In this document: positions 16,137-56,047 of the stretch, in pieces
Layout: the number at the start of each line of letters is the position of its first letter
Numbering within the stretch: the stretch's first letter is position 1
Source: Arenicellales bacterium
Lineage (GTDB): Bacteria; Pseudomonadota; Gammaproteobacteria; Arenicellales; JAJDZL01
Length of the DNA stretch: 64,000 bases
Reading direction: 5' to 3'
Assembly: GCA_965202855.1 (NCBI GenBank)
Contig: CBDBBP010000004.1
Coordinates: 1,107,213-1,171,212, forward strand
Notes under the pieces: generated by a model
The model's input: the letters and a program-made list of their open reading frames with translations, nothing else
Told to the model about the DNA's origin: nothing
Databases searched by the model: none
Program-made: the position numbers and the translations under genes

Positions 16137-16440
16137 TTGGAGCTGGGACTGCGTCCGGTGTGGCATCGTCTGAACCAGCGAATCCAGGTGCACTTGTTCA
16201 TCACAGTGTTGGCTTATCACGTCGTTCAGACCTTGCGCTTTCAGTTCAAGCAGCAAGGCATTCACTGGAGCTGGCAGAGCATTCGCCGGCGTCTTCGAAA
16301 CTGGATGCGGGTGACGACCACGATGAAGACCCAGCAGCATCGCACCTGTACCAATCGTCAGGATGTCCGTCCGCGGAACAGGCACAGCTGGCGCATGCGG
16401 TGAACCTGAAAGTCGGGCTGCATCGAAGACGCTGGTGAGC
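16137..16440 (+). pseudogene. C-terminal fragment of an IS4/IS1634-type DDE transposase
   Basis: LELGLRPVWHRLNQRIQVHLFITVLAYHVVQTL resembles the conserved tail after the catalytic E of IS4-superfamily transposases. No N-terminal part is present. It is locally GC-rich, and several overlapping ORFs are open, as in foreign GC-rich DNA. Confidence 0.6.
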
Positions 16441-16520
16441 CAACGAGAATAAGAAAAATGCGCGAAATGTTGTTACATGTACGAATTTGTGGTATTCGAA
16501 AAAATCATGAGATCAATGCT

Positions 16521-28900: not shown

Positions 28901-30808
28901 TTGATCCTCCCAATAATTTTGGTCTCCAGTTACAGCGCATCTGATATCGAAGTCCTTGTCGGTCTTGAGCCGGTCCAAAAAAGGCCGGGCATGTATACCC
29001 AAACCGACAATCCAAACCATTTAGCACAAGAAGTCATTGACAACGGTGTGGATGAAGTAATTTCCGGTCACGCATCAGAAATCACCGTGACTCTGCACGA
29101 AGATTGCTCCTTAAGCGTTTTGGACGATGGTAGAGGCATACCGGTCGATATTCATCAGGATGAAATGATTCCAGCGGTTGAATTAATCATGACAAGGTTA
29201 CATTCAGGCGCAAAATTTTCCTCTAAAAATTACCGACACTCAGGCGGACTGCATGGAGTTGGAGTTTCTGTTGTCAATGCCTTGTCAAAACGTCTTGTTG
29301 TTGAGATCATGCGTGGTGGACAGCTGCATCGAATCGAATTTGTGAATGGTGACGTCAGTCAGCCGCTAACGATTATCGGTGACGTCGCAAAGAGGTGTAC
29401 AGGCACAAAAATTCGATTTTGGCCAAATCCCAAATATTTTGATTCGATTGACTTTGATATCAGGAAATTAAAGCAGCTGATGATTGCAAAAGCCGTGCTA
29501 TGCACTGGTTTACAGCTGAATTATGTCGATAAAACCGACCCCAAAAAAAATGAAAGCTGGCAATTCGAGGAAGGCCTGCAGAACTATCTTCATGACCAGC
29601 TAAACGGAAGTTCAGCCATTCCGGAACTGCCTTTTGTTTTTCACCAAAATTTAGAAGAAACGGTCGTCGATTGCGCAATTACCTGGACTCCCGCATCAAG
29701 TCAAGTCATCGCAAAAAGCTTTGTCAATCTAATTCCTACGCCGCAGGGAGGCACGCACGTAAATGGGTTTCGAATCGGCATCGCGAATGCCCTGAGAGAG
29801 TTTTGCGAGTTTCGAAATCTTACTCCGAAAGCAATCAAAATTTCAGTTGACGACGTTTGGCGCCAGTGTAATTTCATTCTTTCCGTTCGTATGGACAACC
29901 CCCAGTTTCAAGGTCAAACCAAGGAACGGCTATCGACAAGAAGAATAGGCAAAATCCTTGCCAACATGACCAAAAACGTCATCAGTCTATGGTTGAATCA
30001 ACAGGTAACAGTTGCCGAACAAATCGCTAAACTGGCGATAGCCAATGCGCGTCAGCGTAAGTTAGCCAGTCAGTCGGTAAAAAGGCGAAAAACCGTGCTC
30101 GGTCCCGCATTGCCCGGCAAACTAGCAGACTGCACCAGTACTGAATTACAGGAAACAGAGCTGTTTCTTGTCGAAGGCGATTCTGCGGGCGGCTCAGCAA
30201 AACAGGCGCGCAACAAAGAAACGCAAGCGATTTTGCCATTGCGTGGAAAAATTCTCAACACTTGGGAAATTGGCTCGGAGCGTGTCCTTGCTTCAGCCGA
30301 AGTCAATTCAATCGCTGTAGCGCTTGGAGTCGACCCCGGATCATCAGAAGTCAATGGACTGCGTTATGGAAAAGTTTGCATACTAGCTGATGCCGATTCG
30401 GACGGAGCCCACATTGCGACTCTTCTATGCGCTCTTTTCGTCCGACATTTTCGAGTGCTTGTCGCTGCTGGACATGTCCATGTCGCAATGCCTCCGTTAT
30501 ACCGAATTGACTCTGGCAAGGATGTGCACTATGCGTTGGATGATGATGAACTGGAACAATTGAAGCGGCAGCTGAAATCTGCAAAGAGAAACACCAAGAT
30601 TACAGTACAGCGCTTTAAAGGACTCGGAGAAATGAATCCATCTCAGTTGAAGGAAACAACGATGGACCCTTCTTCCCGTCGACTGGTTCGGCTTGAAATT
30701 AATGGAACTGCGACAGTCGACAAAAAACTAGACATGCTGCTCGCCAAGAAAAAAGCCGGGGCTCGAAAGCTTTGGTTGACAAGATATGGTGACCAAGCCA
30801 TTATCTGA
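28901..30808 (+). CDS. parE: DNA topoisomerase IV subunit B
   Basis: Colinear with Par[32 protein letters not shown], Toprim [24 protein letters not shown]. About 630 aa without the GyrB insertion. Followed by parC. Non-ATG start (TTG at 28901 or 28919). Confidence 0.93.
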
Positions 30809-41612: not shown

Positions 41613-44424
41613 TCGATCTTTGCCTCTTTGAATCTGAAATGGAAACTACTTTGCGAGTTACGGACAGTGCATCGGTAACCAAGCGTTGTTGTTGTACTAA
41701 GTGAACACGATAATTCCCGACTGCAGGTGCAGGAGCTTCATCTCGAGACACGCAAGTGAATTTCTGGTTCTTTCTCAAACAATCGCGAATGAGATGCCAA
41801 ATTTGGTACCAAGCGCCCTGATTCCTCGGTTCTTCCTGGCACCATACGACTTCTTGTGCCTTGGGGTAATTCCTAAGAACGAAATTCAATACATTGACTG
41901 GAAATGGATAAAGCTGTTCAATTCGAATAATAGCAATATTGCGAATATTCAAGTGTTCCCGCATATGATAAAGATCGTAGTAGACTTTACCCGTACACAA
42001 AATAATACGAACGACTTCATCACGTCGAATTGATCGATTAGTTTCGTCTATTACAGTGATAAATCCAGAATCCGACAGATCGCTAATATCCGAAATGGCG
42101 AGCTTGTGTCGCAGCAAGCTTTTTGGTGACAAAACTATCAATGGATGGCGGTATTTTCGCAGAATTTGCCGTCGCAGCAGATGAAACATTTGCGCAGGTG
42201 TTGTCGGAATGCAAACCTGTATATTGTCGCCAGCACATAGCTGCAGAAATCTTTCAAGTCGAGCGGATGAATGTTCCGGTCCCTGTCCTTCGTAACCATG
42301 TGGCAACAGCATTACCAAACCACAGAGCCTCCCCCACTTTACGAAACCACTACTGATGAATTGATCAATGACAATCTGCGCGCCGTTGGAGAAATCACCA
42401 AATTGCGCTTCCCAAATAACAAGTGTTTCGGGATCGGTGGTTGAATAGCCATACTCAAATGCAAGCACTGCTTCTTCGGATAGCAGCGAGTTGTAAACTT
42501 CATAATTGTCCTCAGTACGAATCGATTTCAGAGGACAGTACACACCTCGGCTATTCTGATCGTGCAACAGCGCATGACGATGTGAAAATGTTCCACGACC
42601 AACATCCTGTCCGGTCAAACGAACCTGGTATCCGTCATCAATCAGAGAGGCATAAGCCATCGTTTCCGCAAATCCCCAATCGATCGCTTTTTCCCCCAAT
42701 GACATGCTGGTGCGGTCGGACACAATTTTTTGAACCCGATTGTGCAGTGTGAAATTTTCCGGCAATTCCGTCAGCTGCTTCTGCAGCTTTTCAATTCTCT
42801 CTCGAGAAACGCTTGTGTCGACTGGATCTGTCCATTGTGCAGACATGTATCGATTCCAATCGACAATTTTTTCCATTTTTGCAGGATCAATAATCTGACC
42901 GGCCACGACTTCACCTCGGTCAAGCTCGTCGCGGTAATCCAGAACCATCTTTTGGGCTTCAGTATCGGAAATCACTCCTTTTTGGGCCAAATCCTGCGCA
43001 TACATGCGTCGAATTGGGACGACTTGCTTGATTCGCGAATACATGACGGGCTGTGTCATCATCGGTTCGTCCGCTTCATTGTGACCATATCTTCGATAAC
43101 AGACCATATCGATCACAACATCCGTATGAAATTCCGTTCGGTAGGCATGCGCCAGTCGAGCCACTTTTACCACAGCTTCAGGGTCGTCACCGTTTACGTG
43201 AAATATGGGTGACTGCACCATCTTTGCCACTTCCGTGCAATGAATCGTAGAGCGCGCATCCGCCTTATTGCTGGTGGTAAATCCAATTTGATTGTTGATG
43301 ATGATATGGATGGTGCCACCTACCCCGAATCCTCGAGTATGTGACATGTTAAAGGTTTCCATCACCACGCCTTGACCGGCGAATGCCGCATCTCCATGCA
43401 CGACAATCGGCGTCACTTCTTTCCAGGAATTATCTTCACGACGATGCTGTCGGGCGCGAACCGAACCAACTACGACAGGATTAATGATTGCCAGATGAGA
43501 TGGATTAAATCCCAAGGCAACATGAACAATTCCACCGGAAGTATTGATGTCGGCCGAAAATCCCATGTGATATTTCACATCGCCCTGATCCTTCCAGACA
43601 CCGCTGACTGCCACATTCCCTTCAAATTCACCAAAGACTTCGGCGGGTGATTTACCCAATACGTTAACTAGAACATTGAGCCGGCCGCGATGAGCCATTC
43701 CGATTACGACTTCTTTGCCGCCAGTTTTGCCTGACAGCTCAACCAACTCCGTCAACATAGGAATGAGTGATTCACCGCCTTCCAGTGAAAATCGCTTCTG
43801 ACCGACATATTTCATGTGCAAGTATGTTTCCATACATTCGGCCATTGTCAACGCTCGCAAAATTCGCTTGCGGTCATCATCGGTTACGACTGGGTGCAAA
43901 TTTTCGTTTTCGACTCTGGATAACAGCCATTCCAGACGATCTTGTTCCGAAACATGCATAAATTCGTAACCAATCGAGCTGCAGTACGTCTTATCGTAGA
44001 ACTCCAGGATTTTTCTGAGCTCCATGGACTTCGTGTCTTCAACTGCGTCGATCTTAAAAATTTCATTCAGGTCGCTTTCGACCAAACCAACGGATTCAAG
44101 GCTCAGATCGGTACTGGGTGCGACATCTTCGAGTCCCAGCGGGTCTAGGTTGGCGTTCAAATGCCCATAAACTTGATATTTGCGAACCAAACGCTGAACT
44201 GCGGCCTGACGACGAATACTGTCATGATCCACATACTCGTGCGCATAACCTACTCCAGGCAGAAATGGCTTATGTTCGGTGGTTTCAAAATCCGAAAAGG
44301 TTTCATTCCATTCCTGAGTGACTTTTTCGGGTTCCGAATGATATTGATCATACAGACTTTCGAGATAATCAGCGTTACCTGAAAAGAAAGCGGTTTCTTG
44401 AGTTGGACTTTTTGATGTACTCAT
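41602..44424 (-). CDS. sucA: 2-oxoglutarate dehydrogenase E1 component
   Basis: 940 aa, with SucA size and motifs ([42 protein letters not shown]). Overlaps sucB by 11 nt. Confidence 0.96.
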
Positions 44425-44470
44425 GGAATGAAATTAGTTGGATTAGTCAAAGCTAGAAGATAAATCTAAC

Positions 44471-44509
44471 TCCTAGTCATTTGTATAGAATGACATCAAA
44501 TGACTAGGA
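44471..44509. promoter_or_regulatory. 13-bp perfect inverted repeat upstream of sucA
   Basis: TCCTAGTCATTTG (44471-44483) and CAAATGACTAGGA (44497-44509) are separated by 13 nt. It lies 47-85 nt upstream of the sucA start codon. Confidence 0.4.
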
Positions 44510-44814
44510 TACTGCGAGTGACAAGACTCTACTGAAAACTATCAAATTAAACACAGTTTTCAAAAGAATTGACGATTAATTTATCGGTTTAATTATAAAA
44601 CATTTACAGCATTTAGATTTTATTGATGATGCACGAAATCTTCAAAAATTGAGAATGTTGATTTTACGCTTTGCAGAACATATCGGAGCGTAACATATCG
44701 ACAAATTTTTGCGAGATTAACCGAATATGCCTAAGTTCAAATTACCTGATGGTATTCTGATAAATGCTCACAGTAACGAGAGAGTTGACTCAGTATAAAA
44801 ATAATTATTCAATG

Positions 44815-44878
44815 TCACTTGAAACCAACCACAGCAAGATTCAACTTCACTTGAAACGATTAACAGCAAGCTTCAATA
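44815..44878. repeat. two tandem 32-nt units in the AT-rich spacer region
   Basis: TCACTTGAAACCAACCACAGCAAGATTCAACT is followed by TCACTTGAAACGATTAACAGCAAGCTTCAATA (about 25/32 identical). Confidence 0.5.
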
Positions 44879-45149
44879 GTGTCGCTCGTCGAGAGAAACA
44901 CGAATTTGATTCAATTGCTTCTGCACCCGTTTCATCATGTGATGTGTTTTTAGTCAAAATTAGATAAGAAAATTCGTTTATTAGATTAAATCATGCCAAA
45001 AACTAAATTCACCTAATAAATATTCTCGAATTTCGTCTACTGGCGTGCCACTTATTCAAACTAGCAAGCATGTCCAGAAGAATCTGAGATTCCTAAGAGG
45101 CAAATTACAAAAATAGTACCGAACAACAAACTAGGAGAGATCCAAAAAG

Positions 45150-45395
45150 ATGACCAAAAAAAAGAATATGGCAGCGTTGACTTACCATGAAATGCATACT
45201 GATTCTCCAGACGAGCGAGGATCATTCTGGCGTACTGTACTTGATATACTCAGCAGCGGTGGGGGCGTCAATCCCGATTTCGGTGAAATTCGATATCCGA
45301 AGAATGCACAAAAACAGGATTTAGAGCGAATCGGTCAGGATTTTTCTAGAACACTTAGTAAATTTGACTCTTCAAAATTACATCGAAACGGCTGA
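45150..45395 (+). CDS. hypothetical small protein next to the CRISPR array
   Basis: 81-aa ORF with an AGGAGA 9 nt upstream of the ATG. No motif I recognise. An adjacent +1-frame ORF stays open to 45528. Confidence 0.4.
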   Translation: MTKKKNMAALTYHEMHTDSPDERGSFWRTVLDILSSGGGVNPDFGEIRYPKNAQKQDLERIGQDFSRTLSKFDSSKLHRNG

Positions 45396-45540
45396 GCGCA
45401 ATAAAGCCACTTCTGAGAAAGAATTCACCGAGAAAGAATCCTCTAGATCCGAATCTACTGAGAAAAATTCTTCGACATTTCGTATCGGTTGGGTATTAGA
45501 AGTATTAGTTAATGACCCGAAAGAGACATGATTCCCTTCG

Positions 45541-45557
45541 GTTTAAATTGCTGAAAC
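45541..45557 (+). repeat. internally deleted CRISPR repeat remnant
   Basis: GTTTAAATTGCTGAAAC equals repeat nt 1-14 (2 substitutions) joined to the last 3 nt of the repeat. A 21-nt spacer-like segment follows, then the degenerate first full repeat. Confidence 0.6.
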
Positions 45558-45578
45558 TTATGCTCCCACGCGAAATAA

Positions 45579-48500
45579 GTTTCAGTTACTGAGTAATCAG
45601 GTATATTGGTGAAACTTTTCGAGCCGCGAGCGAACTTGGAATTCGGACAATGTTTCAGTTGCTGAGTAGTCAGGTATATTGGTGAAACTTGAAGGCTATG
45701 AGGGAGAACGACACGCATTCACTGTTTCAGTTGCTGAGTAGTCAGGTATATTGGTGAAACCCCATTACGCTGCCCATCAGCCAAAACCAGATCATGTTTC
45801 AGTTGCTGAGTAGTCAGGTATATTGGTGAAACTTCAAGCGTTACTTGAATTGACGGCTGTCGTAAGTTTCAGTTGCTGAGTAGTCAGGTATATTGGTGAA
45901 ACAAAAGCAAACAACCGGATCAACAAGTCTTATGATTGTTTCAGTTGCTGAGTAGTCAGGTATATTGGTGAAACTGCCCTCCGATCTTGCGTTGCGTCAC
46001 TGCTTCCTGTTTCAGTTGCTGAGTAGTCAGGTATATTGGTGAAACTCAAGTTGATCGTGCGGGTCCGTCAGGAAGTCATTTGTTTCAGTTGCTGAGTAGT
46101 CAGGTATATTGGTGAAACCGCGAAAGGTTCAATCCGTTCCGGCACGTCTCGAGAGTTTCAGTTGCTGAGTAGTCAGGTATATTGGTGAAACTGCCCTCCG
46201 ATCTTGCGTTGCGTCACTGCTTCCTGTTTCAGTTGCTGAGTAGTCAGGTATATTGGTGAAACGTGTCAGACTTATGCGACCGTGATAGAGGCTTAGTTTC
46301 AGTTGCTGAGTAGTCAGGTATATTGGTGAAACCGAAAAAACTGGATGTAAACCTTGTCCATACAGGTTTCAGTTGCTGAGTAGTCAGGTATATTGGTGAA
46401 ACATCAATCCCAGTCGGAACCAAACAAATGTGATACCTGTTTCAGTTGCTGAGTAGTCAGGTATATTGGTGAAACAGCAAAACGATTTGCAGTTGAGCCG
46501 CAAAACGTTCTGTTTCAGTTGCTGAGTAGTCAGGTATATTGGTGAAACTCTGCAAAACTCCAGGTTGCGACAATCATCGGACGTTTCAGTTGCTGAGTAG
46601 TCAGGTATATTGGTGAAACACAGTTGTTCAACGAACACGTAGATATTTTCAAAGAGTTTCAGTTGCTGAGTAGTCAGGTATATTGGTGAAACGCAGATCC
46701 ACGGGATTATCAAGAGTTCGAACTACGAGTTTCAGTTGCTGAGTAGTCAGGTATATTGGTGAAACTGAAGGATGCGTAGCATAGACGCTTCGGTCATTAG
46801 GTTTCAGTTGCTGAGTAGTCAGGTATATTGGTGAAACTTGGCAATCCTCCATTCTCCGACCGAGCAATCACAGGTTTCAGTTGCTGAGTAGTCAGGTATA
46901 TTGGTGAAACTCCGATATCGGCGACCACCTAAACCACATGAAACAGTTTCAGTTGCTGAGTAGTCAGGTATATTGGTGAAACCATGAAGAGGGTAAAACC
47001 TACCGCTTGAGCAAACAGTTTCAGTTGCTGAGTAGTCAGGTATATTGGTGAAACTTGAACCACACACCGAAGCGAGGAACGAATCTTAGTTTCAGTTGCT
47101 GAGTAGTCAGGTATATTGGTGAAACCGAATGGTGCGAGGTGTCTAACTATAGGTATGCGCGTTTCAGTTGCTGAGTAGTCAGGTATATTGGTGAAACTAC
47201 ACGGTGTAGTGCAACCGCTTCGTTCATCCAGTGTTTCAGTTGCTGAGTAGTCAGGTATATTGGTGAAACCTTGATAAATCCCGCTGACGGCTGCGAGTAT
47301 GATCAGTTTCAGTTGCTGAGTAGTCAGGTATATTGGTGAAACCCAAAAAGAGTATTACAAGGTTGACAGTTTAGAGTGTTTCAGTTGCTGAGTAGTCAGG
47401 TATATTGGTGAAACTCAAGCTCAGATGAAACATGAGATTCCTGAGATCAGTTTCAGTTGCTGAGTAGTCAGGTATATTGGTGAAACGGCTCAGATAATAG
47501 TCGGACGTCTGGATCTTAAGGGTTTCAGTTGCTGAGTAGTCAGGTATATTGGTGAAACTGGTTGATCCATTAGATTATGAGTCAGGTGTGATAGTTTCAG
47601 TTGCTGAGTAGTCAGGTATATTGGTGAAACCAAAAGACAACGGTATCCTTGAAGTCATACCCGGCAGTTTCAGTTGCTGAGTAGTCAGGTATATTGGTGA
47701 AACTATTTAACGAATGGCAAATTAGAGAAATATACCAAGTTTCAGTTGCTGAGTAGTCAGGTATATTGGTGAAACGGTGAAATTTTGTCTATCTCAATTC
47801 CGTCTGGCATGTTTCAGTTGCTGAGTAGTCAGGTATATTGGTGAAACCGCACTGTGCCGACATACGGGTGAACTTCCCCTGAGTTTCAGTTGCTGAGTAG
47901 TCAGGTATATTGGTGAAACGATGAATTCGTTGAATAGCGCCAGCGATAAAGAGTGTTTCAGTTGCTGAGTAGTCAGGTATATTGGTGAAACCCAGAGAGT
48001 CGTCAACCGTGTCGTCAGATCTCAGAATGTTTCAGTTGCTGAGTAGTCAGGTATATTGGTGAAACGATTTGAGTGCTATAAGTCATGTGTGCCCTTAGAA
48101 TGTTTCAGTTGCTGAGTAGTCAGGTATATTGGTGAAACGCTGCCATGCTGACCGTCGACGGCGCAGAGGGAGTGGTTTCAGTTGCTGAGTAGTCAGGTAT
48201 ATTGGTGAAACGGTGTTGCGGATGACAATGTTGCAGTATTTCATATGTTTCAGTTGCTGAGTAGTCAGGTATATTGGTGAAACTGCTCAGGTCTTCAAAC
48301 ATGGCTAGGTTGTTATTGGTTTCAGTTGCTGAGTAGTCAGGTATATTGGTGAAACTGGATCGAGACACGTTTGAGCGAATTGTTCTGGAATCGTTTCAGT
48401 TGCTGAGTAGTCAGGTATATTGGTGAAACCGGGAAGGGAGAGCTCATCGAGGCCATGGCCAGGATGTTTCAGTTGCTGAGTAGTCAGGTATATTGGTGAA

Positions 48501-48865
48501 ACCGTTAAATTCTTTAAAATCCCTTTTAGTGTTGAAGTTTCAGTTGCTGAGTAGTCAGGTATATTGGTGAAACTTTGATTATTGGTTCGTCTTCGCGGGA
48601 GAGTGGGCGTTTCAGTTGCTGAGTAGTCAGGTATATTGGTGAAACTAGGATTCGTTCTTGCAGTTCAAACATTTAGCCTCCGAGTTTCAGTTGCTGAGTA
48701 GTCAGGTATATTGGTGAAACGAATTGCTAGGGGTGGAGGAAGCTTGCGACACGTAGTTTCAGTTGCTGAGTAGTCAGGTATATTGGTGAAACGTTGAACA
48801 GGTATATGATAGCGGTGATTTTGGGTATGTTTCAGTTGCTGAGTAGTCAGGTATATTGGTGAAAC
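45579..48865 (+). CRISPR. CRISPR array, 46 repeats / 45 spacers, type II-B
   Basis: The 37-nt repeat is GTTTCAGTTGCTGAGTAGTCAGGTATATTGGTGAAAC. I located 46 copies by hand. The first copy (45579-45615) carries G10A and G18A, and all the others appear identical. Spacers are 33-38 nt. The strand is assigned from the tracrRNA anti-repeat and from the 5' GTTTCAGTTGCTGA shared with the F. novicida crRNA repeat. Confidence 0.98.
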
Positions 48866-48973
48866 TCCATTCGATTTCTGTTTAAGAACAGTAATATATG
48901 GAAAATATGAGGGATAATATTTTCGAAAATGACCTTTCTGTACGAAAATCGACATTTTTTGCGAAAATATCTC

Positions 48974-49002
48974 TTGTGTAAAAGGAATGATTTCAATAAA
49001 AT
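48974..49002 (+). promoter_or_regulatory. sigma-70-type promoter of the tracrRNA
   Basis: -35 TTGTGT (48974-48979), a 17-nt spacer, and -10 TAAAAT (48997-49002). This predicts a start about 7 nt downstream, exactly at the anti-repeat. Confidence 0.6.
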
Positions 49003-49008
49003 TAAGAA

Positions 49009-49134
49009 AACCAATATAGTTGACTACTGATGCACTGTAATCATAAAAAAGTATTTTGATCGGACCTCTGCCTAGCACGTCTGAAATTGATTAGTAAAAT
49101 AGGATATCCACCCTTGGTTGGATATCCTATTTTT
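49009..49134 (+). ncRNA. tracrRNA
   Basis: The anti-repeat AACCAATATAGTTGACTACTGATGCACTG pairs with repeat nt 5-32 (perfect blocks of 9 bp and 8 bp). Downstream, GTAATCATAAAAAAGTATTTTGATCGGACCTCTGCCTAGCACGTCTGAAATTG is near-colinear with the F. novicida tracrRNA/sgRNA scaffold as I recall it. It ends in a 12-bp hairpin plus a T-run. Confidence 0.88.
49099..49134. terminator. bidirectional intrinsic terminator shared by tracrRNA and the convergent cas operon
   Basis: ATAGGATATCCA (49099-49110) / TGGATATCCTAT (49119-49130) with an 8-nt loop. AAAA lies upstream and TTTT downstream. It sits 17 nt past the cas4 stop. Confidence 0.8.
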
Positions 49135-49150
49135 ATGCTTCTCATCTACT

Positions 49151-49759
49151 TTAAAGTCTGTCATTACAAAAGTTAATGTATTCGCAGGAGCAACATTGAA
49201 AGACCGATGCATTGGAGTCAGGTTTCACACCGAGAGTTAGCATTTGTCGTATTGCATCGGCAATTTGTAAGACTTTTTGCCTTCTGTCTGTACTGATTTC
49301 AATGGTGTGCAACATTTTGCCTGCTCCAACAAGAAATCCATACTGGCTTGGTTTCGAAAAATGACTTTCTAACAGCATCGCATATGCAGTCAACTGCATA
49401 ATATCTCCGCGTTTTTTATTGCTCGCCGATATTTTGAACTCGATTGGATAAACGGCTTCATTAGTTTCAATAGCCATGTCAACAATACCGTGAATGCCAT
49501 AAAGATTATCCCGTATAGCGAGTTTGTAGAATTTCTCGCCATCTTTTAATTTAAACCGAGATAGATTGCGGCGCTGCCACAATTTTTCTTCCAACTGATG
49601 AAAATATTCGCCCTGTTTCACCCATAGTGGATAATTAGCAACAATATCTGTTAGTTCAATATAGTAAACAACTCTTGGGCAATAACACCACTGCCGCAAT
49701 AGGTTCGCAGGCACACTAAATGACTTCTGTTTCATTCCAATCTTTAAAGTCTTTAGCAC
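49151..49759 (-). CDS. cas4: CRISPR-associated exonuclease Cas4
   Basis: 202 aa with PD-(D/E)xK core (VDMAIE...PIEFK) and the 1+3 cysteine Fe-S pattern (WCYCPR near the N-terminus; CCSCEYINFC at the C-terminus). Confidence 0.9.
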   Translation of the reverse strand: MLKTLKIGMKQKSFSVPANLLRQWCYCPRVVYYIELTDIVANYPLWVKQGEYFHQLEEKLWQRRNLSRFKLKDGEKFYKLAIRDNLYGIHGIVDMAIETNEAVYPIEFKISASNKKRGDIMQLTAYAMLLESHFSKPSQYGFLVGAGKMLHTIEISTDRRQKVLQIADAIRQMLTLGVKPDSNASVFQCCSCEYINFCNDRL

Positions 49760-50039
49760 TGTATCCGATGAAAAAACTTTTCCCTCTACCGTTAAAATTA
49801 GTTCGAGTAATGAAAACTTTGTCAGTACTCCTAAAGTTAGTCTTCAGGAACCGTTTGATGGCCTCTGTTTCAGCGGTTGTTAAATATCCCCAAAACACGG
49901 ATTTCTGTACGGGTTTTAATCCCAATTTGCTCAGTTCATTGAAGATTTCAGTGCGCAGTTTATTGTTCGAAATATCGTAACTAACAAGATATTCTTGTCG
50001 GAGTGGATGCGTCATTCGATAAGACCGATTCTCTACCAC
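49716..50039 (-). CDS. cas2: CRISPR-associated endoribonuclease Cas2
   Basis: 107 aa. LVSYDISNNKLRTEIFNELSKLGLKPVQKSVFWGYL is the Cas2 ferredoxin-fold N-terminus. Located between cas1 and cas4. Confidence 0.88.
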   Translation of the reverse strand: MVENRSYRMTHPLRQEYLVSYDISNNKLRTEIFNELSKLGLKPVQKSVFWGYLTTAETEAIKRFLKTNFRSTDKVFITRTNFNGRGKSFFIGYSAKDFKDWNETEVI

Positions 50040-50992
50040 TTGAAAAGATATGGCCTGTAAGTTTTCTCTCCGTAAAAATGCCCGCAGAGTCTATAAATCT
50101 GCCTTTGAATAATATGTTCCAGTTTCAGCTTTCTTTTTCTATATAGATAACTTCTCGCACAAGTTCGTTGAACTTCAGATATTAGTGCCTTTTTTAGTTC
50201 CACATCTAAATCTTGCTTCTTTTCAATTCTAGAGCGCAATTTGATAACGACTCTGTCTACTACCCAAGAACGATATTCTTCCATCAGATCCAATACCAAT
50301 GCCATTTTGCCTGGACGTCTGCCATGTAGAATGCCGAGATAAGGTTCCAAGCCAGCATTGATGATCGAACTTAGAATGTAGGCACTTAGCATCGCGTATC
50401 CAAAGTTCAGCATGACATTATTGAGTTCTTGACTTCCGCGCCCTTCGCGTCTGCAGAACGAAGATGAAAATAAGCCGGCATTGCGCAATCCTCCAAAATA
50501 AGCACTCGCACTAGCACCTTCGTACCCTAAAAGGGTTTGAAAGTGACTTGTCTTATTAGCTTGGTTGGCGTAATCCAGTAGTTTTACAGCAGTTGACTGT
50601 AATTCCTCATTCTGATGATATTTACCCAGATGTTTAATTACTGCACGCTGATTCTTTATCTTCGCAACTACGATTTTTTTTGCGAGTGGCAGGGTGTCGC
50701 CTTGACAATATTTCATTTGCGCCATGCGAACGGCAACCACTCCGTGTTGTGATTGCCCTAGAATTGCTGAATGGGCTACACCACGATAATCTAAGAAGAA
50801 TAACTTAATGCCCCGAACACTAAACGCCTCAATTAAATCACTCGAAATACTAATTCCACGTTTTGCTATCGATACGGTACACAGACGATTAAGAGGATAA
50901 TATTTGGTGGCATTACCTCGCTGTTTGACCGCTAAACGATGACGCTCTAATCCAAGAAAAGTGCCGTAATCACATATTACTAGGTGCTTCAC
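50033..50992 (-). CDS. cas1: CRISPR-associated endonuclease Cas1
   Basis: 319 aa. The N-terminal beta domain begins LVICDYGTFLGLERHRLAV. The C-terminal helical domain carries conserved acidic/His residues (LGYEGASASAYF, LGILHGRRPGKMALVLDLMEEYR). Confidence 0.92.
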   Translation of the reverse strand: MKHLVICDYGTFLGLERHRLAVKQRGNATKYYPLNRLCTVSIAKRGISISSDLIEAFSVRGIKLFFLDYRGVAHSAILGQSQHGVVAVRMAQMKYCQGDTLPLAKKIVVAKIKNQRAVIKHLGKYHQNEELQSTAVKLLDYANQANKTSHFQTLLGYEGASASAYFGGLRNAGLFSSSFCRREGRGSQELNNVMLNFGYAMLSAYILSSIINAGLEPYLGILHGRRPGKMALVLDLMEEYRSWVVDRVVIKLRSRIEKKQDLDVELKKALISEVQRTCARSYLYRKRKLKLEHIIQRQIYRLCGHFYGEKTYRPYLFKW

Positions 50993-51103
50993 TGCATTAA
51001 ATTATCCTCTTCGCTTTAGTTCCTCTACTAATTTACGCTTTTCTCTAAACTGCACTCGATATTAAATGCGAAACATTGCATGTACACCAATTCAAAGGAG
51101 TGT

Positions 51104-54100
51104 CTACGTTTCGTTCGAATCGCCGAAATAATACTGCTGTAAAATCTTACTCAAGGAACTCTTTATTTCGTTTGAAAAACCGTCTGCTTTGTACTCCATT
51201 AATTCAAACTCATTTGAATTCAAATTAGTTAGAAATTTCTCTTTCAATTTTTGAAAACTATCTTTTCTAGGCTTAAGTAAAGGGTCTTGAAATATCTCTT
51301 CAATTTTTTCTCTGGCCACCTGCTGATCGAATTTAAAGCGGATTCGAGGGCGAGTATTGTCTTCAATTCGGTATTCCAGTTCAGTCACACCATTTCTTTT
51401 CAAAGATTCGTTAAGTTCCACTCTATGCCATTTTTCCGTGTCAATCAATTTAACGGTATCACTTCGTTCAGAATTGTATTTTTGTCTCTTCAAAAAAAAT
51501 GTGTTCTGAGATTTGGCTGACTCGGAGAGTAACTTACCAATCTTACCTTCACTGTTGCAAACCGGGATAAACGCTTTGGCACCTAGTTTTTGAGAATTCG
51601 AATCATTGACGATCTGAAAAATTGGACTGTTGTTCCAAGATTTTCTCTTCAGCAACCTGTGCCCTTGATTCGATTTTATGGGCAATGAATAAACTTGACG
51701 AAATTTTTTGTGAGGGTGTTGGTGTCTATACCTGAAAAATCCTCTCAAAAATTCTCCATTTTCTAATTCTGATGACTTCTCCCATGCGTCAATGAGCATT
51801 TTCCATTCATTTCTCACTGGCAATATGAGATTCCCTTGATCTTTTGATAACTTAAAATTTTGCCCATTGTTCAAAATTTTCTTCGCATCATCCAATGTTG
51901 TGATTTGTTTTTTCTCAGTTCGATAAGAAAGCTTTTTTCTAAGAAAATTCATCTCATTGCTATAAACTTGACAACCTTTAGCCGTATTGTAGTTTTCTAT
52001 GTAATGAGAGTGGATCATTCGTGTATTCAATGAGATACAGAAATAGTCATTTTTTGATTTAAATCCAACTTGGATTAGCTGAGACCTTAGTGTCTGGAAA
52101 GTATCTTCTTCATTTAGTGCCAATAATTTTTTTTTGCGATTGAACTGAAGGGCAAAATTCAATTTTTCTCGATTTGGTTTGTAGTCTTTGAGTGGAAAAC
52201 TGTTCTTCCAGTCAAATCCAATACGAACTTCCGATAATTTTCGGTGTACAAGGATCGGCAGATAATGTTCGGCGTACATTCCATCGCGATGAATGGAGCG
52301 ATGTTTGAAATACTGTCGGTCAGGTTTGCGACGTTCCAAGGAAACCTCTCGGAAATTTTTTGGTTCAACTTGAATAGCCTTGAAGAGACTGTCATCATAG
52401 ACTCGAAAATGTGCGTTTTCCATTTGGCTCACTAATTGATCAACACGAGACCAAATTCCCGTTTTTCCCAATTCAAGCCTCAAACTTCCACTGCCGCGAT
52501 GTGCATCTGCCACCATGCAGAATGCCACTTGCGCATCTAACAGATGAGAATACGGTTTCTGAGGCGAATTATCACTTTTACTGTAGCTGGCTAGATCTGG
52601 GCGATAATAGGTAACCAAATCATGACGCAAATTGTGTATTCCATCGCCCCGGGAATTGTCCCGCGCTTCCACTCCAAAATAGTCAAATGAAAGTAAGTGA
52701 TGTTTGTCAATTCTTTTTGCTTTCTTATAAAGTGCGTTGGCTAATACTTCCGCAAAGTATCGTTGGGTTCCATTAACGAGCGATTTGGTTCGATGATTGA
52801 TAGTGCTAATAACGAGCTCTCGAAGGGGGTCACCTGCTTTGAGGAATAGTGCGTGTCGAAATGCTTTTCGTTGTTCTTTCGTCAAATTTATAAAATTGAA
52901 ATAGCGTCCAAATTTGAACTGCCCTCCTTGACCGTCGCCAATTGTATCTTTTATCCGTTTCTCTATTCGCGAGTCGTCAGCGGTTCCGAAAACGTGACGT
53001 TTGTAATGGGGATGCAAATCTGAAAGGGAAAATTCTGAATCTCCTTTATTTGCACGATTGTCTTGTTCACTGGTAAAAATCAGATTTGCTTCATCATTAA
53101 GCGTACCCCATTTAGGATGCGCTCTGGGAATAATATGATCGATATCCCCCGTGTTCCCCAATGTTACTCCTGAATATGGCGAAATTTGGGTTGATTTTCT
53201 GACTCTATTTCTTTTTGAATGTTGTATCTTCTTCAGGTCACTTGAATTAAATTCTCTTTTTCTTTTGTTATACTCCCTCGCGTCCAAATAGGGCCTTTTA
53301 AGCTCTAGCAAATTTGGTTCAAACTGAAACCGATTAGATTCTGTAATTATTGGTATCCGAACTTCTATACCCGATGATAAATTCTTCTCGATTTTTAACC
53401 ATTTATCTTTTGCGATAGCTGCGCCTAAAATTCGAGCTAGACGCATCACTGCACCATCAATCAGTCTGGTCGGAATCGCAGGCAAGCGTTGGGCTTTTAC
53501 ACTTTTTTCGAACATTTGCATTCTTTGGGCGTTATCCAAACTACAAACAGAGCAAGTTTTTGCATTTCCACGGCGCTCCTTGAATGCTATGTTGTTAATC
53601 TGAGCAAGCAGAAATACAGCACTTGCTGGATGGTCTTGAAGACTTTGATTCCATTTCTCTGATTGTGATTCATCATACAGTCGACTTCCTATTTCTCCAC
53701 ATACTTCAAGACACTTTTTTACAAGTTTGAATAATTCTTCATGAGAATTAGACTCACCCCAAACTTCAAGAATTTTATCCTTCAGCTGCCCACGGAATTT
53801 TTTTTGTTCCTTAGCTGCATCTGCGCTATTAGTCTTCAAGCCCTTGATATTTTTCAACCAAATTGTCAGCTCGGTATGGTCATTAGATTTTGTTCGTTTT
53901 TTAAGTTGCTTCGGGGATATCTGAAATAAGCCAGCTATATCACTGATCAGCTGATAACGCTTTTGTCTTGGCTTATGGTTGCAATAGGTGAGCAGGTGAT
54001 CACGGTCTTCAAAACGTCCAGTTTTTTTGAATCCACGACCTTTTATTAAGCGATACTCGGGATGAATGAATATCCTACCATCGCGCGCTTTCTGCCGATT

Positions 54101-56047
54101 TTTGTAATAGTTGCAGATTAAATGCATGAAACTCCCTTGAGCAAAGACACCGCTGTCATCGTAGTTCGGCCGTGTTTTGAAATTATCAGGCAATCTGCTG
54201 CAGTTCATCGCTTTTGCTAATTTTTCTCTCGTTTTCTCACGGTCTTTCCGACTAGACTGTTGTTGGCGAATTTTTTTCGTATGACTGAAAATTTCATTTA
54301 GCTTCAGTACGTCTTCGTCTTTCACCCGGTCTAATAGAAACTGCAATATTCGAGCGTCCAAATCCTTAGCAGTTCTGCACCCTGAATCTCTCTGAGGCGA
54401 ATTGGTTAACTTGCCACCAAAATAAGCAGTGCCTTTACTGCTCTTCAACTCTTCCATTTCCTTCTTGTAATTTCCTAGATATCCTTTTACTTCCGGCAGG
54501 CGCAACAGTTCTTTCAGCCATATTCTCCAGTCTCTGTAATCGTTATCCAAGAATTCTGTGTTGAGTACCAAGCTCTGACATTTCGGCGGACGCCGATTGT
54601 TTTTATCTTGGTATGGAGGAATAGTAAATAAAGGAGATTGCTCAAGCCAAAATTCAACAACGCTACCTTGATGAGCTTTGCATATTGAGCGAAGTTTTTG
54701 GTAGTCATATTCTGCGCCTGGTGCTTTGTCCAAGTCTTTTTCCGGATTTACGCGCCACTCCCGAAGTATCCAGTGTTCAAACTGATCTTTCAAGCGACTC
54801 CTGTCCCAATAATCACCCTGTTTATGTCTTTTTTCGTTGAAATATTTTCTGAGAGGTTTCAGTTCCAAATTACTCAAGTGACCGATGAGATTTGCCAGTG
54901 ACTGAGGAGTGAGAGAAGTACCATTTTGGATTCTAAATTCACCGGAATGCAGTCTCGTGCAGAATGAATTCAAATAGCCATGTTGGTGGTTCACGCATTC
55001 TAAGGTATCTTTAATCTCTTGAAAATATTTGCTTCTATGACGAGCACCCGTACTTAACTCCTGAATTACCGTATGCAAAGCGAATGCGAAGTGATGGATA
55101 TGAGTTCTTAACCAATTCTTCCGCGCTTGAAGAATTCTTTTATTTACTCTATTGGAATTATTCGATGTTTCTATCGGGTCGAACGAGGCTTTTTCGAGCT
55201 TAAACTTTTCGGCATCAAAGTTCCATATTGAAGCGTTCAATTCAGCATTTTCTTTTTCCAAGTCGGTGGGTAGACTGCTAAGAATTTCACTGGCAACCGA
55301 AGAGCTCTTCTGATTGAGTTTTTCAGCTAAGTCGACTGTTCTTCCTTCGTCTCGAATACAGTGTAACCCAACAATGCCCATATCATCCCAAGCATCAAGA
55401 ATCCATTCATTTAATCTAAACTTGTCTTGAGTTCGTTTGTTTACCTCTATCTGACTCCCTCCAATCCTTGTTTTACAACTTTCCTTCAGTAATTTTGTAC
55501 GATTAATGATTAGAAGATTGCGTTTAATCTTTTTCGGTTTTTCAATAACAGACTTGAATATTTCCTTGATTTCAGATCGACCATGCTGCTTCCATTCGGA
55601 CATCTTTTCATCTAAATTACAGGTGTCTCGTATTTCACCAAATTGATTCTGGACCGCTTCTGGAAGTTCCCTAAATGCAGGCTCTGGAAAGTACTTTAAG
55701 GCTTCTGCATCATATTCTTCGGACAGATAACTAAACCCTCTGCGATTGAACAGAAAACCGATAGTCTGCTGAGTCTTTACGTCCCATTCCAAACCAAACT
55801 CTTGGCACCAGATCAGTCGAAACAAACGCTTTACCATTTGCCTGCGTTTGTATCCTCGCCGTTGATGACGTCTGGCAGTTCTTTCGGGCATCATTAACGT
55901 AAATGCGTTTTTCTCCAACTGATACACTTTTCCTTCTTTCTCAATTTCTCCTAGAGAACTTCCAGCTTGATAATGAGCGAAGTACACTCCAGTGCTTTTC
56001 GAACCAAGATCTATGGAAATAGGACTAATTACTAATCGTTTCGGCAT
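51104..56047 (-). CDS. cas9: type II-B CRISPR-associated endonuclease Cas9 (1647 aa, FnCas9-like)
   Basis: RuvC-I ISIDLGSKSTGVYF; Arg-rich bridge helix RTARRHQRRGYKRRQMVKRLFRLIW; RuvC-II IPIITESNRFQFEP; HNH DIDHIIPRAHPKWGTLNDEANLIFTSEQDNRANKG; RuvC-III SHLLDAQVAFCMVADAH. Long colinear blocks match F. novicida Cas9 (e.g. LELKPLRKYFN, TIPPYQDKNNRRPPKCQSL, LTYCNHKPRQKRYQL, AQRLPAIPTR). Confidence 0.97.
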   Translation of the reverse strand: MPKRLVISPISIDLGSKSTGVYFAHYQAGSSLGEIEKEGKVYQLEKNAFTLMMPERTARRHQRRGYKRRQMVKRLFRLIWCQEFGLEWDVKTQQTIGFLFNRRGFSYLSEEYDAEALKYFPEPAFRELPEAVQNQFGEIRDTCNLDEKMSEWKQHGRSEIKEIFKSVIEKPKKIKRNLLIINRTKLLKESCKTRIGGSQIEVNKRTQDKFRLNEWILDAWDDMGIVGLHCIRDEGRTVDLAEKLNQKSSSVASEILSSLPTDLEKENAELNASIWNFDAEKFKLEKASFDPIETSNNSNRVNKRILQARKNWLRTHIHHFAFALHTVIQELSTGARHRSKYFQEIKDTLECVNHQHGYLNSFCTRLHSGEFRIQNGTSLTPQSLANLIGHLSNLELKPLRKYFNEKRHKQGDYWDRSRLKDQFEHWILREWRVNPEKDLDKAPGAEYDYQKLRSICKAHQGSVVEFWLEQSPLFTIPPYQDKNNRRPPKCQSLVLNTEFLDNDYRDWRIWLKELLRLPEVKGYLGNYKKEMEELKSSKGTAYFGGKLTNSPQRDSGCRTAKDLDARILQFLLDRVKDEDVLKLNEIFSHTKKIRQQQSSRKDREKTREKLAKAMNCSRLPDNFKTRPNYDDSGVFAQGSFMHLICNYYKNRQKARDGRIFIHPEYRLIKGRGFKKTGRFEDRDHLLTYCNHKPRQKRYQLISDIAGLFQISPKQLKKRTKSNDHTELTIWLKNIKGLKTNSADAAKEQKKFRGQLKDKILEVWGESNSHEELFKLVKKCLEVCGEIGSRLYDESQSEKWNQSLQDHPASAVFLLAQINNIAFKERRGNAKTCSVCSLDNAQRMQMFEKSVKAQRLPAIPTRLIDGAVMRLARILGAAIAKDKWLKIEKNLSSGIEVRIPIITESNRFQFEPNLLELKRPYLDAREYNKRKREFNSSDLKKIQHSKRNRVRKSTQISPYSGVTLGNTGDIDHIIPRAHPKWGTLNDEANLIFTSEQDNRANKGDSEFSLSDLHPHYKRHVFGTADDSRIEKRIKDTIGDGQGGQFKFGRYFNFINLTKEQRKAFRHALFLKAGDPLRELVISTINHRTKSLVNGTQRYFAEVLANALYKKAKRIDKHHLLSFDYFGVEARDNSRGDGIHNLRHDLVTYYRPDLASYSKSDNSPQKPYSHLLDAQVAFCMVADAHRGSGSLRLELGKTGIWSRVDQLVSQMENAHFRVYDDSLFKAIQVEPKNFREVSLERRKPDRQYFKHRSIHRDGMYAEHYLPILVHRKLSEVRIGFDWKNSFPLKDYKPNREKLNFALQFNRKKKLLALNEEDTFQTLRSQLIQVGFKSKNDYFCISLNTRMIHSHYIENYNTAKGCQVYSNEMNFLRKKLSYRTEKKQITTLDDAKKILNNGQNFKLSKDQGNLILPVRNEWKMLIDAWEKSSELENGEFLRGFFRYRHQHPHKKFRQVYSLPIKSNQGHRLLKRKSWNNSPIFQIVNDSNSQKLGAKAFIPVCNSEGKIGKLLSESAKSQNTFFLKRQKYNSERSDTVKLIDTEKWHRVELNESLKRNGVTELEYRIEDNTRPRIRFKFDQQVAREKIEEIFQDPLLKPRKDSFQKLKEKFLTNLNSNEFELMEYKADGFSNEIKSSLSKILQQYYFGDSNET

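Follow-up and report, generated by a model that had tools for sequence, protein, structure and literature searches.

A very likely tracrRNA gene between the CRISPR array and cas4 in the type II-B CRISPR-Cas9 locus of an uncultured gammaproteobacterium

Introduction

The closest described counterpart of the RNA considered here is the tracrRNA of Francisella novicida U112, the expression and processing of which have been shown by RNA-seq and northern blot (PMC3737331). A primary 5' end of this RNA was found by RNA-seq at a predicted promoter, processing yields further 5' ends about 6 and 16 nt downstream of the start, and both co-processing with pre-crRNA by RNase III and binding to Cas9 have been shown for this homologue (PMC3737331). 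A repeat length of 37 nt has been described for type II-B in the same work (PMC3737331), and the scaRNA of Francisella is known to be an orphan repeat at the array end remote from the tracrRNA (PMC6199352). As regards the direction of transcription, type II-C arrays have been found by RNA-seq to be read opposite to the cas operon, the rule relying on a mutated terminal repeat is reported to give the wrong direction for them (PMC3737331), and a rule of thumb termed 'Cas Orientation' expects II-B arrays to follow the orientation of the cas genes (PMC6737040).

In this work we consider one window, by which we mean the whole stretch of 64,000 nt that was analysed, and we conclude with high confidence that its positions 49010-49134 on the plus strand encode the tracrRNA of a type II-B CRISPR-Cas9 system of an uncultured gammaproteobacterium. 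The gene lies outside the array, in the interval from the last repeat, which ends at 48865, to the stop codon of cas4 at 49151, and its identity, strand and position, which had been put forward in an initial annotation, are agreed upon by a covariance model, by synteny, by covariation and by a match to the Rfam family FtrA.

Layout of the locus

The array and the cas genes of the system are as follows.

45579-48865, plus strand: CRISPR array of 46 repeats of 37 nt (GTTTCAGTTGCTGAGTAGTCAGGTATATTGGTGAAAC) with spacers of 33-38 nt, crRNA sense on the plus strand
49151-49759, minus strand: cas4 (TIGR00372, 92.6 bits), last gene of the converging cas operon, stop codon 49151-49153
49716-50039, minus strand: cas2
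50033-50992, minus strand: cas1
51104-56047, minus strand: cas9/csx12 of type II-B, 1647 aa (TIGR03031, 577 bits against a cut-off of 399)

A Csx12-type Cas9 is thus found together with cas1, cas2, cas4 and a 37-nt repeat, as is characteristic of type II-B, and the order cas9-cas1-cas2-cas4, the antisense tracrRNA and the transcription of the array towards the operon are all the same in Francisella novicida U112. The plus strand was taken as the crRNA sense because the tracrRNA is on this strand and because nt 1-14 of the repeat are identical to those of the Francisella repeat. The Cas9 proteins themselves differ considerably, the window enzyme being only 40% identical to FnCas9 as against 85% and 76% to its two closest relatives (L043 and L001, respectively), of which L001 is recorded as a metagenome-assembled Arenicellales genome; the closest relatives of the window are indeed Arenicellales genomes assembled from metagenomes. 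The closest solved structures to the window Cas9 are FnCas9 complexes, which align over the full length, and in an alignment of 18 Cas9 sequences the columns holding D13, H971, H1168 and D1171, which we take to be the RuvC and HNH catalytic residues, are invariant. With four cas genes, invariant putative catalytic columns, 46 repeats and spacer turnover relative to L043, the system looks intact and active.

The window has no spacers in common with L043 or with L001, and an attempt to read the polarity of acquisition from shared spacers was dropped for this reason. It should also be mentioned that a repeat-spacer-repeat block of 108 nt is duplicated exactly within the array (45938-46045 and 46155-46262), making spacers 6 and 9, counted from 1, identical. 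An 81-aa open reading frame (45150-45395, plus strand) with a good ribosome-binding site, AGGAGA, is found in the 1.1 kb that separate a sucA-like gene from the old array end; over 9 nt it matches the repeat in reverse complement, probably by chance. The only open reading frame overlapping the tracrRNA itself (48665-49078, minus strand) is taken as spurious, since it runs through CRISPR repeats.

Pairing of the repeat and the anti-repeat

The anti-repeat and the blocks in which it pairs with the repeat, all on the plus strand, are the following.

49010-49041: anti-repeat, pairing with repeat nt 1-32 over 28 bp and interrupted by a single mismatch or bulge at each of 49019, 49029, 49031 and 49038
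49010-49018: duplex block with repeat nt 24-32
49020-49028: duplex block with repeat nt 14-22
49030: pair with repeat nt 12
49032-49037: duplex block with repeat nt 9-11 and 5-7
49039-49041: duplex block with repeat nt 1-3

An anti-repeat of three short blocks had initially been placed at 49009-49037, and the in silico co-folding of repeat and anti-repeat confirms the pairing, but it starts at 49010 and extends to 49041, thereby involving repeat nt 1-32 in a duplex of 28 bp with an energy of -33.3 kcal/mol (RNAduplex). A sceptical reader may object that complementarity to the repeat could be a chance match in an A/T-rich intergenic region, and other sites in the window do have a duplex energy nearly as low. 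The tracrRNA site has the best energy found outside the array (z = -4.9), with chance sites following at -33.1 and -32.6 kcal/mol, and three such sites lie within 0.2-1.3 kcal/mol of the true one:

29996-30045, minus strand: chance duplex site
43706-43760, plus strand: chance duplex site within a 940-aa open reading frame
45226-45270, plus strand: chance duplex site within the 81-aa open reading frame, sharing a 9-mer

None of the three is accompanied by the scaffold and none is matched by the covariance model. Since the chance sites come so close, duplex energy alone is weak evidence, and an energy scan of the window was rejected as a discriminating test for the same reason; it is the homology and covariation tests that we regard as decisive for the identity of the RNA. 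A chance match is vanishingly improbable and indeed already refuted by these tests, namely by an E value of 5.6e-19 with a model (R1) built without the window clade and by covariation, as well as by synteny.

Homology and covariation

Forty II-B loci were retrieved through their Cas9, and nhmmer with window positions 49009-49134 as query found a homologue in most of them. Of these loci 35, Francisella included, went into the covariance model R1, from which the window and its two closest relatives were left out. A covariance comparison with II-B tracrRNAs had been proposed as a check, and R1, although blind to the window clade, matches the window a single time, at 49007-49084 on the plus strand with 86.4 bits and the E value given above, all other matches having E values of at least 1 and falling mostly on array repeats. 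Among the related loci R1 detects a single copy in 36 and a pair of copies in another two, and as all but two of the 40 hits score 72-97 bits they constitute one family. With nhmmer and R1 taken together, a homologue of the tracrRNA is present in 38 of 42 related loci, and it is almost always located downstream of cas4, antisense to the operon, adjoining the array and about 2 kb past the end of cas9, the exception being L009, where it is upstream of cas9. These other loci (L001-L038) come from Arenicellales, Poriferihabitaceae, Bdellovibrionales, Spirochaetia, Thermodesulfobacteriota and others, and they agree with the window in family, position, strand and the possession of a covarying anti-repeat. 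In L009 the array and the tracrRNA are found together upstream of cas9 and on its strand (L009 5864-7623). The two loci with two copies are L019 (16727-16805 and 20625-20704) and L017 (7730-7811 and 7859-7939), each copy scoring 66-76 bits, and in L019 the copies flank the array on both sides.

When the region 44400-51200 is compared to Rfam, the only meaningful match is to FtrA (RF02747), covering 49016-49128 with 39.2 bits, an E value of 0.004 and model positions 1-111 of 111. The gathering score of FtrA is 134, and in the present material it is reached only by the Francisella sequence, which scores 141 bits (L041 14187-14297) and is situated beside the array and antisense to the cas operon. 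Rfam FtrA is therefore the Francisella tracrRNA under another name, filed as a generic sRNA, and the window RNA is a homologue of FtrA but falls below Rfam's own cut-off for membership. With 39.2 bits against a threshold of 134 it is missed by standard Rfam annotation, and the same probably applies to other II-B tracrRNAs.

In order to assess covariation, the repeat of each locus was joined to the locus's own tracrRNA and the resulting sequences from 37 distinct loci were aligned with MAFFT, i.e. in an alignment that was not fitted to the structure. In this alignment 88.5% of the cells are paired as compared to 31-45% (at most 44.5%) after the partners have been shifted against each other by 1-3 columns, 23 of the 37 repeat:anti-repeat pairs have changed on both sides, and 126 compensatory cells are observed against 36 expected, values that are reached in none of 500 shuffles. 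A change of repeat G7 to A is for instance matched by a change of C to U in the tracrRNA in L010, L014 and L031, and the distal helix has been replaced completely in L005, L016, L035 and L037. Likewise the distal half of the anti-repeat differs between the window and Francisella, in each case fitting the genome's own repeat. Judged from these alignments, the anti-repeat evidently evolves together with the repeat of its own locus.

The scaffold and its conservation

Downstream of the anti-repeat, and partly overlapping it, the following elements make up the scaffold.

49035-49059, plus strand: invariant CUGUAAUCA motif and A/U-rich linker (CAUAAAAAAGUAUUUUGA), with CTGTAATCA invariant or nearly so in 38 loci
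49060-49084, plus strand: stem-loop 2, UCGGAC/GUCUGA with an inner UGC/GCA, 3 of 8 pairs with compensatory changes, those of the innermost one being seen in 12 sequences

The initial annotation had remarked on a resemblance between a stretch of 53 nt, which corresponds to 49037-49089, and the FnCas9 sgRNA scaffold. This resemblance is borne out, since the scaffold string given there occurs verbatim in the Francisella locus L041 and since the core of 51 nt at 49035-49085 is identical to the Francisella novicida tracrRNA at 44 positions (86%), including CUGUAAUCA and CGGACCUCUG...CACGUCUGA. The inner stem of stem-loop 2 has two compensatory changes relative to Francisella, and most other II-B tracrRNAs differ from the window in having an extra conserved hairpin between stem-loop 2 and the terminator (e.g. 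CCCUUGCUUGACAAGGG, or CCCTTGCTTGACAAGGG in L031), which is missing in the window, L001, L043, L006 and Francisella. In the FnCas9 guide, the counterpart of 49035-49059 is the region named 'stem loop 1'. Such a stem-loop, formed by AAAA and UUUU, is supported neither by RNAalifold nor by a scan of all column pairs, in which only one isolated pair covaries. This pair, 49044-49050, is found in the linker after CUGUAAUCA as U-A in 29 sequences, C-G in three and G-C in one, its neighbours being unsupported, and it may be a loop-closing or protein-bound contact. A 6-bp UAAUCA/UGAUUA pairing that RNAfold predicts for the window is missing from the sequences of Francisella (L041) and L001 and was discarded.

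The irregularities of the duplex could be taken to mean that the RNA is a decaying relic, i.e. a pseudo-tracrRNA or a remnant of an inverted repeat that no longer works with this Cas9, although nothing specific speaks for such decay. The mismatches and bulges had from the outset been described as typical of II-B duplexes, and the very same ones are indeed kept across loci and in Francisella, whose duplex has an identical mismatch pattern on its Cas9-proximal side. The scaffold is moreover nearly invariant, the window contains no other copy of the tracrRNA, and there is spacer turnover in the system. In addition, the tracrRNA is 99.2% identical to that of L043 with flanks at 94-97%, and 92% identical to that of L001 with flanks at 82-89%; it is the best conserved segment of the locus, which on comparative grounds points to purifying selection. 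A relic is therefore very unlikely, and we regard the window RNA as a new representative of the known II-B (Francisella-type) tracrRNA family, a result that would not surprise a specialist.

Predicted promoter and terminator

The signals that would delimit the transcript are listed here.

48974-48979, plus strand: putative -35 box TTGTGT, 3 of 6 matches to TTGACA, 17 nt upstream of the -10 box, also present in L001 and L043
48997-49002, plus strand: putative -10 box TAAAAT, predicted start at about 49009-49010, about 7 nt past the box
49096-49134, plus strand: predicted intrinsic terminator, G+C-containing stem of 11 bp with two further inner pairs, flanked by AAAA and TTTTT

A promoter of the form TTGTGT-17nt-TAAAAT had been proposed, and here the coordinates and the -10 box hold up well whereas the -35 box is weak and the consensus scan makes no call. 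Of the 38 loci, 36 have a TAnnnT hexamer a few nt ahead of the base at which pairing of the anti-repeat begins. A TG extension is present at 16 of these boxes, where about two would be expected by chance, and in Francisella a TAAAAT is located 8 nt before the anti-repeat, where FtrA begins. Generic scans for promoters and terminators call neither of the two tracrRNA signals, but since the -10 box is supported by comparison, a start at about 49009-49010 is accepted as the best inference.

At the other end of the gene, TAGGATATCCA (49100-49110) pairs with TGGATATCCTA (49119-49129) between AAAA at 49096-49099 and TTTTT at 49130-49134, the hairpin having an energy of -15 to -21 kcal/mol and being longer than that of Francisella. 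A hairpin followed by a T-run is found at the equivalent place in 33 of 39 loci, which gives RNAs of about 110-132 nt. The suggestion of a 12-bp bidirectional terminator can thus be retained as far as the hairpin and its T- and A-runs are concerned, with a stem of 11 bp and two inner pairs, but read on the minus strand the hairpin has only four T after it (TTTTACTAAT), and termination of the converging cas operon at the same hairpin is plausible. In support of two-way termination it may be noted that many relatives have an A-run on one side of the hairpin and a T-run on the other. The distance from the hairpin to the cas4 stop codon is 21 nt.

These signals bear on the question of whether the tracrRNA has an effective promoter of its own or is mainly the 3' end of read-through from the array, in which case the last repeats and the anti-repeat would reside on one RNA and constitute a natural cis-paired guide precursor. 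Such an origin would fit the facts that array and tracrRNA are on the same strand and 134-187 nt apart in nearly all loci, that they have moved together in L009, that no canonical terminator is called between them by the generic scan and that the -35 box of the window is weak. It agrees poorly, however, with a -10 box, often TG-extended, that keeps its distance to the anti-repeat in nearly all loci, with the primary 5' end that RNA-seq has revealed at a predicted promoter in Francisella (PMC3737331), and with L035, where the tracrRNA is conserved in spite of being 3.8 kb from the array; furthermore, the hairpin that immediately follows the last repeat in most loci could limit read-through. We consider it unlikely as the main source and prefer transcription from the tracrRNA's own promoter, but since array and tracrRNA are co-oriented and no canonical terminator is called between them, read-through could contribute some tracrRNA as a second source.

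Transcription of the tracrRNA would accordingly begin at about 49009-49010 and end at the hairpin and T-run at 49130-49134, these predicted ends giving a primary RNA of about 125 nt, and pre-crRNA would, by analogy with Francisella (PMC3737331), be transcribed from the plus strand of the array in the direction of the cas operon. The 5' 32 nt of the tracrRNA would then pair with every repeat of the pre-crRNA, as indicated by the in silico pairing and the covariation, and the duplex would be processed by RNase III together with Cas9, again as in Francisella (PMC3737331). The processed tracrRNA and crRNA would be held on Cas9 by way of the CUGUAAUCA junction, the A/U-rich linker and stem-loop 2 and so guide the cleavage of DNA, and the terminator hairpin probably ends the converging cas transcript as well.

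Orientation of the array and a possible leader element

The strand of the tracrRNA fixes the transcription sense of II-B arrays, and by this measure the crRNA sense runs opposite to the cas operon in 37 of 38 II-B loci. The repeat at the cas-distal end of the window array (45579-45615) has two mismatches and is preceded by a decayed remnant at 45521-45557, and degenerate repeats occupy the cas-distal end of the array (upstream in the crRNA sense) in 13 loci, as compared to a single locus with such repeats next to the tracrRNA. As mutated repeats are mostly cas-distal, new spacers presumably enter beside the tracrRNA gene; a like disagreement between the mutated-repeat rule and the direction of transcription is on record for II-C arrays (PMC3737331). 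The repeats themselves contain a -10-like hexamer: in 37 of 39 II-B repeat consensus sequences TAnnnT stands at nt 24/25-29/30, which leaves about 8 nt to the end of the repeat; nt 24-29 are TATATT in each of the 46 window repeats and the corresponding hexamer of the Francisella repeat is TAAACT. A -10-like hexamer likewise occurs inside each repeat in type II-C, and the II-B hexamer could be compatible with a promoter inside each repeat as in that type, but the same bases also pair with the anti-repeat. Type II-C systems (Neisseria meningitidis, Campylobacter jejuni) furthermore resemble the present one in the transcription of the array opposite to the cas operon, but their tracrRNAs are unrelated in sequence and position, they have no cas4, and their Cas9 is much smaller.

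The end of the array that corresponds to the site of the Francisella scaRNA holds, in the window, only the repeat with two mismatches and the remnant lacking the 5' half that is used by Cas9 and tracrRNA, and no Francisella-type scaRNA candidate was recognised in the window. A scaRNA in the spacer between array and tracrRNA was considered and rejected, since the Francisella scaRNA is at the other end of the array. This spacer has features of its own.

48866-48973, no strand assigned: spacer between the array and the tracrRNA promoter, read as an integration-side leader with a palindrome and two arms
48866-48902: junction palindrome, weak in the window version (-8.7 kcal/mol, z -1.7)
48922-48929: leader arm 1, TTCGAAAA
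48958-48965: leader arm 2, TTTGCGAA

In approximately 35 of 38 loci an inverted pair, TTCGCAAA-N28-TTTGCGAA, is found 54-58 and 89-94 nt from the last (tracrRNA-proximal) repeat, and its start-to-start spacing is exactly 36 nt in 16 of the 17 loci with perfect arms, Francisella included. The pair occurs in several phyla, from Francisella (L041 14311-14354, minus strand) to Bdellovibrionales and Spirochaetia, and its distance from the tracrRNA varies from 43 to 123 nt while that from the array is kept even in L035, where the tracrRNA (16385-16464) is remote from the array (from 20276) and the TTTGCGAA element stays with the latter. In most loci a palindrome or hairpin begins 1-3 nt past the last repeat, often as CCCC...GGGG but with a sequence that varies by locus, and in 21 of 38 loci it folds better than shuffled sequences (z below -2). 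The fixed inverted pair, the palindrome and the cas-distal position of degenerate repeats together suggest that 48866-48973 is an integration-side leader, situated at the array end that is downstream in crRNA transcription.

In most other loci the -35 slot of the tracrRNA promoter is occupied by the TTGCGA of leader arm 2, and in about 15 loci arm 2 is itself the -35 box, 16-18 nt from the -10 box. In the window clade about 15 nt have been inserted at this place, there are about 15 nt more than in Francisella between the TTTGCGAA element and the -10 box, and TTGTGT fills the -35 slot. One may tentatively speculate, though we find it rather doubtful, that the tracrRNA promoter is built into a conserved II-B leader element; given its conservation across phyla, this element could have as its partner a protein from the locus itself, for example the Cas1-Cas2-Cas4 integrase, and spacer integration and tracrRNA transcription might then be physically coupled.

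Implications

The orientation of II-B arrays found here contradicts the expectation of the 'Cas Orientation' rule (PMC6737040), and if the leader element does work as speculated, spacer integration and tracrRNA transcription would be coupled at the array end that is downstream in crRNA transcription. The tracrRNA itself is a biologically expected part of a known system, and its usefulness lies in guide design for an uncharacterised II-B Cas9 of 1647 aa. Such a design is valuable in view of the fact that the organism is apparently known from metagenome assemblies alone. The guide may be composed of a crRNA with repeat nt 1-22 and a tracrRNA running from 49010 or 49020 to 49134, or of a fusion of the two. 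An sgRNA joining repeat nt 1 to about 20 to 49020 onward had been suggested; the join point at 49020 is sound, but repeat nt 1-22 pair down to this position, and the predicted fold of an sgRNA made of repeat nt 1-22, a tetraloop and 49020 onward keeps the duplex, stem-loop 2 and the terminator. Finally, with a scaffold core that is 86% identical between the window and Francisella as compared to 40% for the Cas9 proteins, guide scaffolds may be interchangeable among the II-B enzymes.
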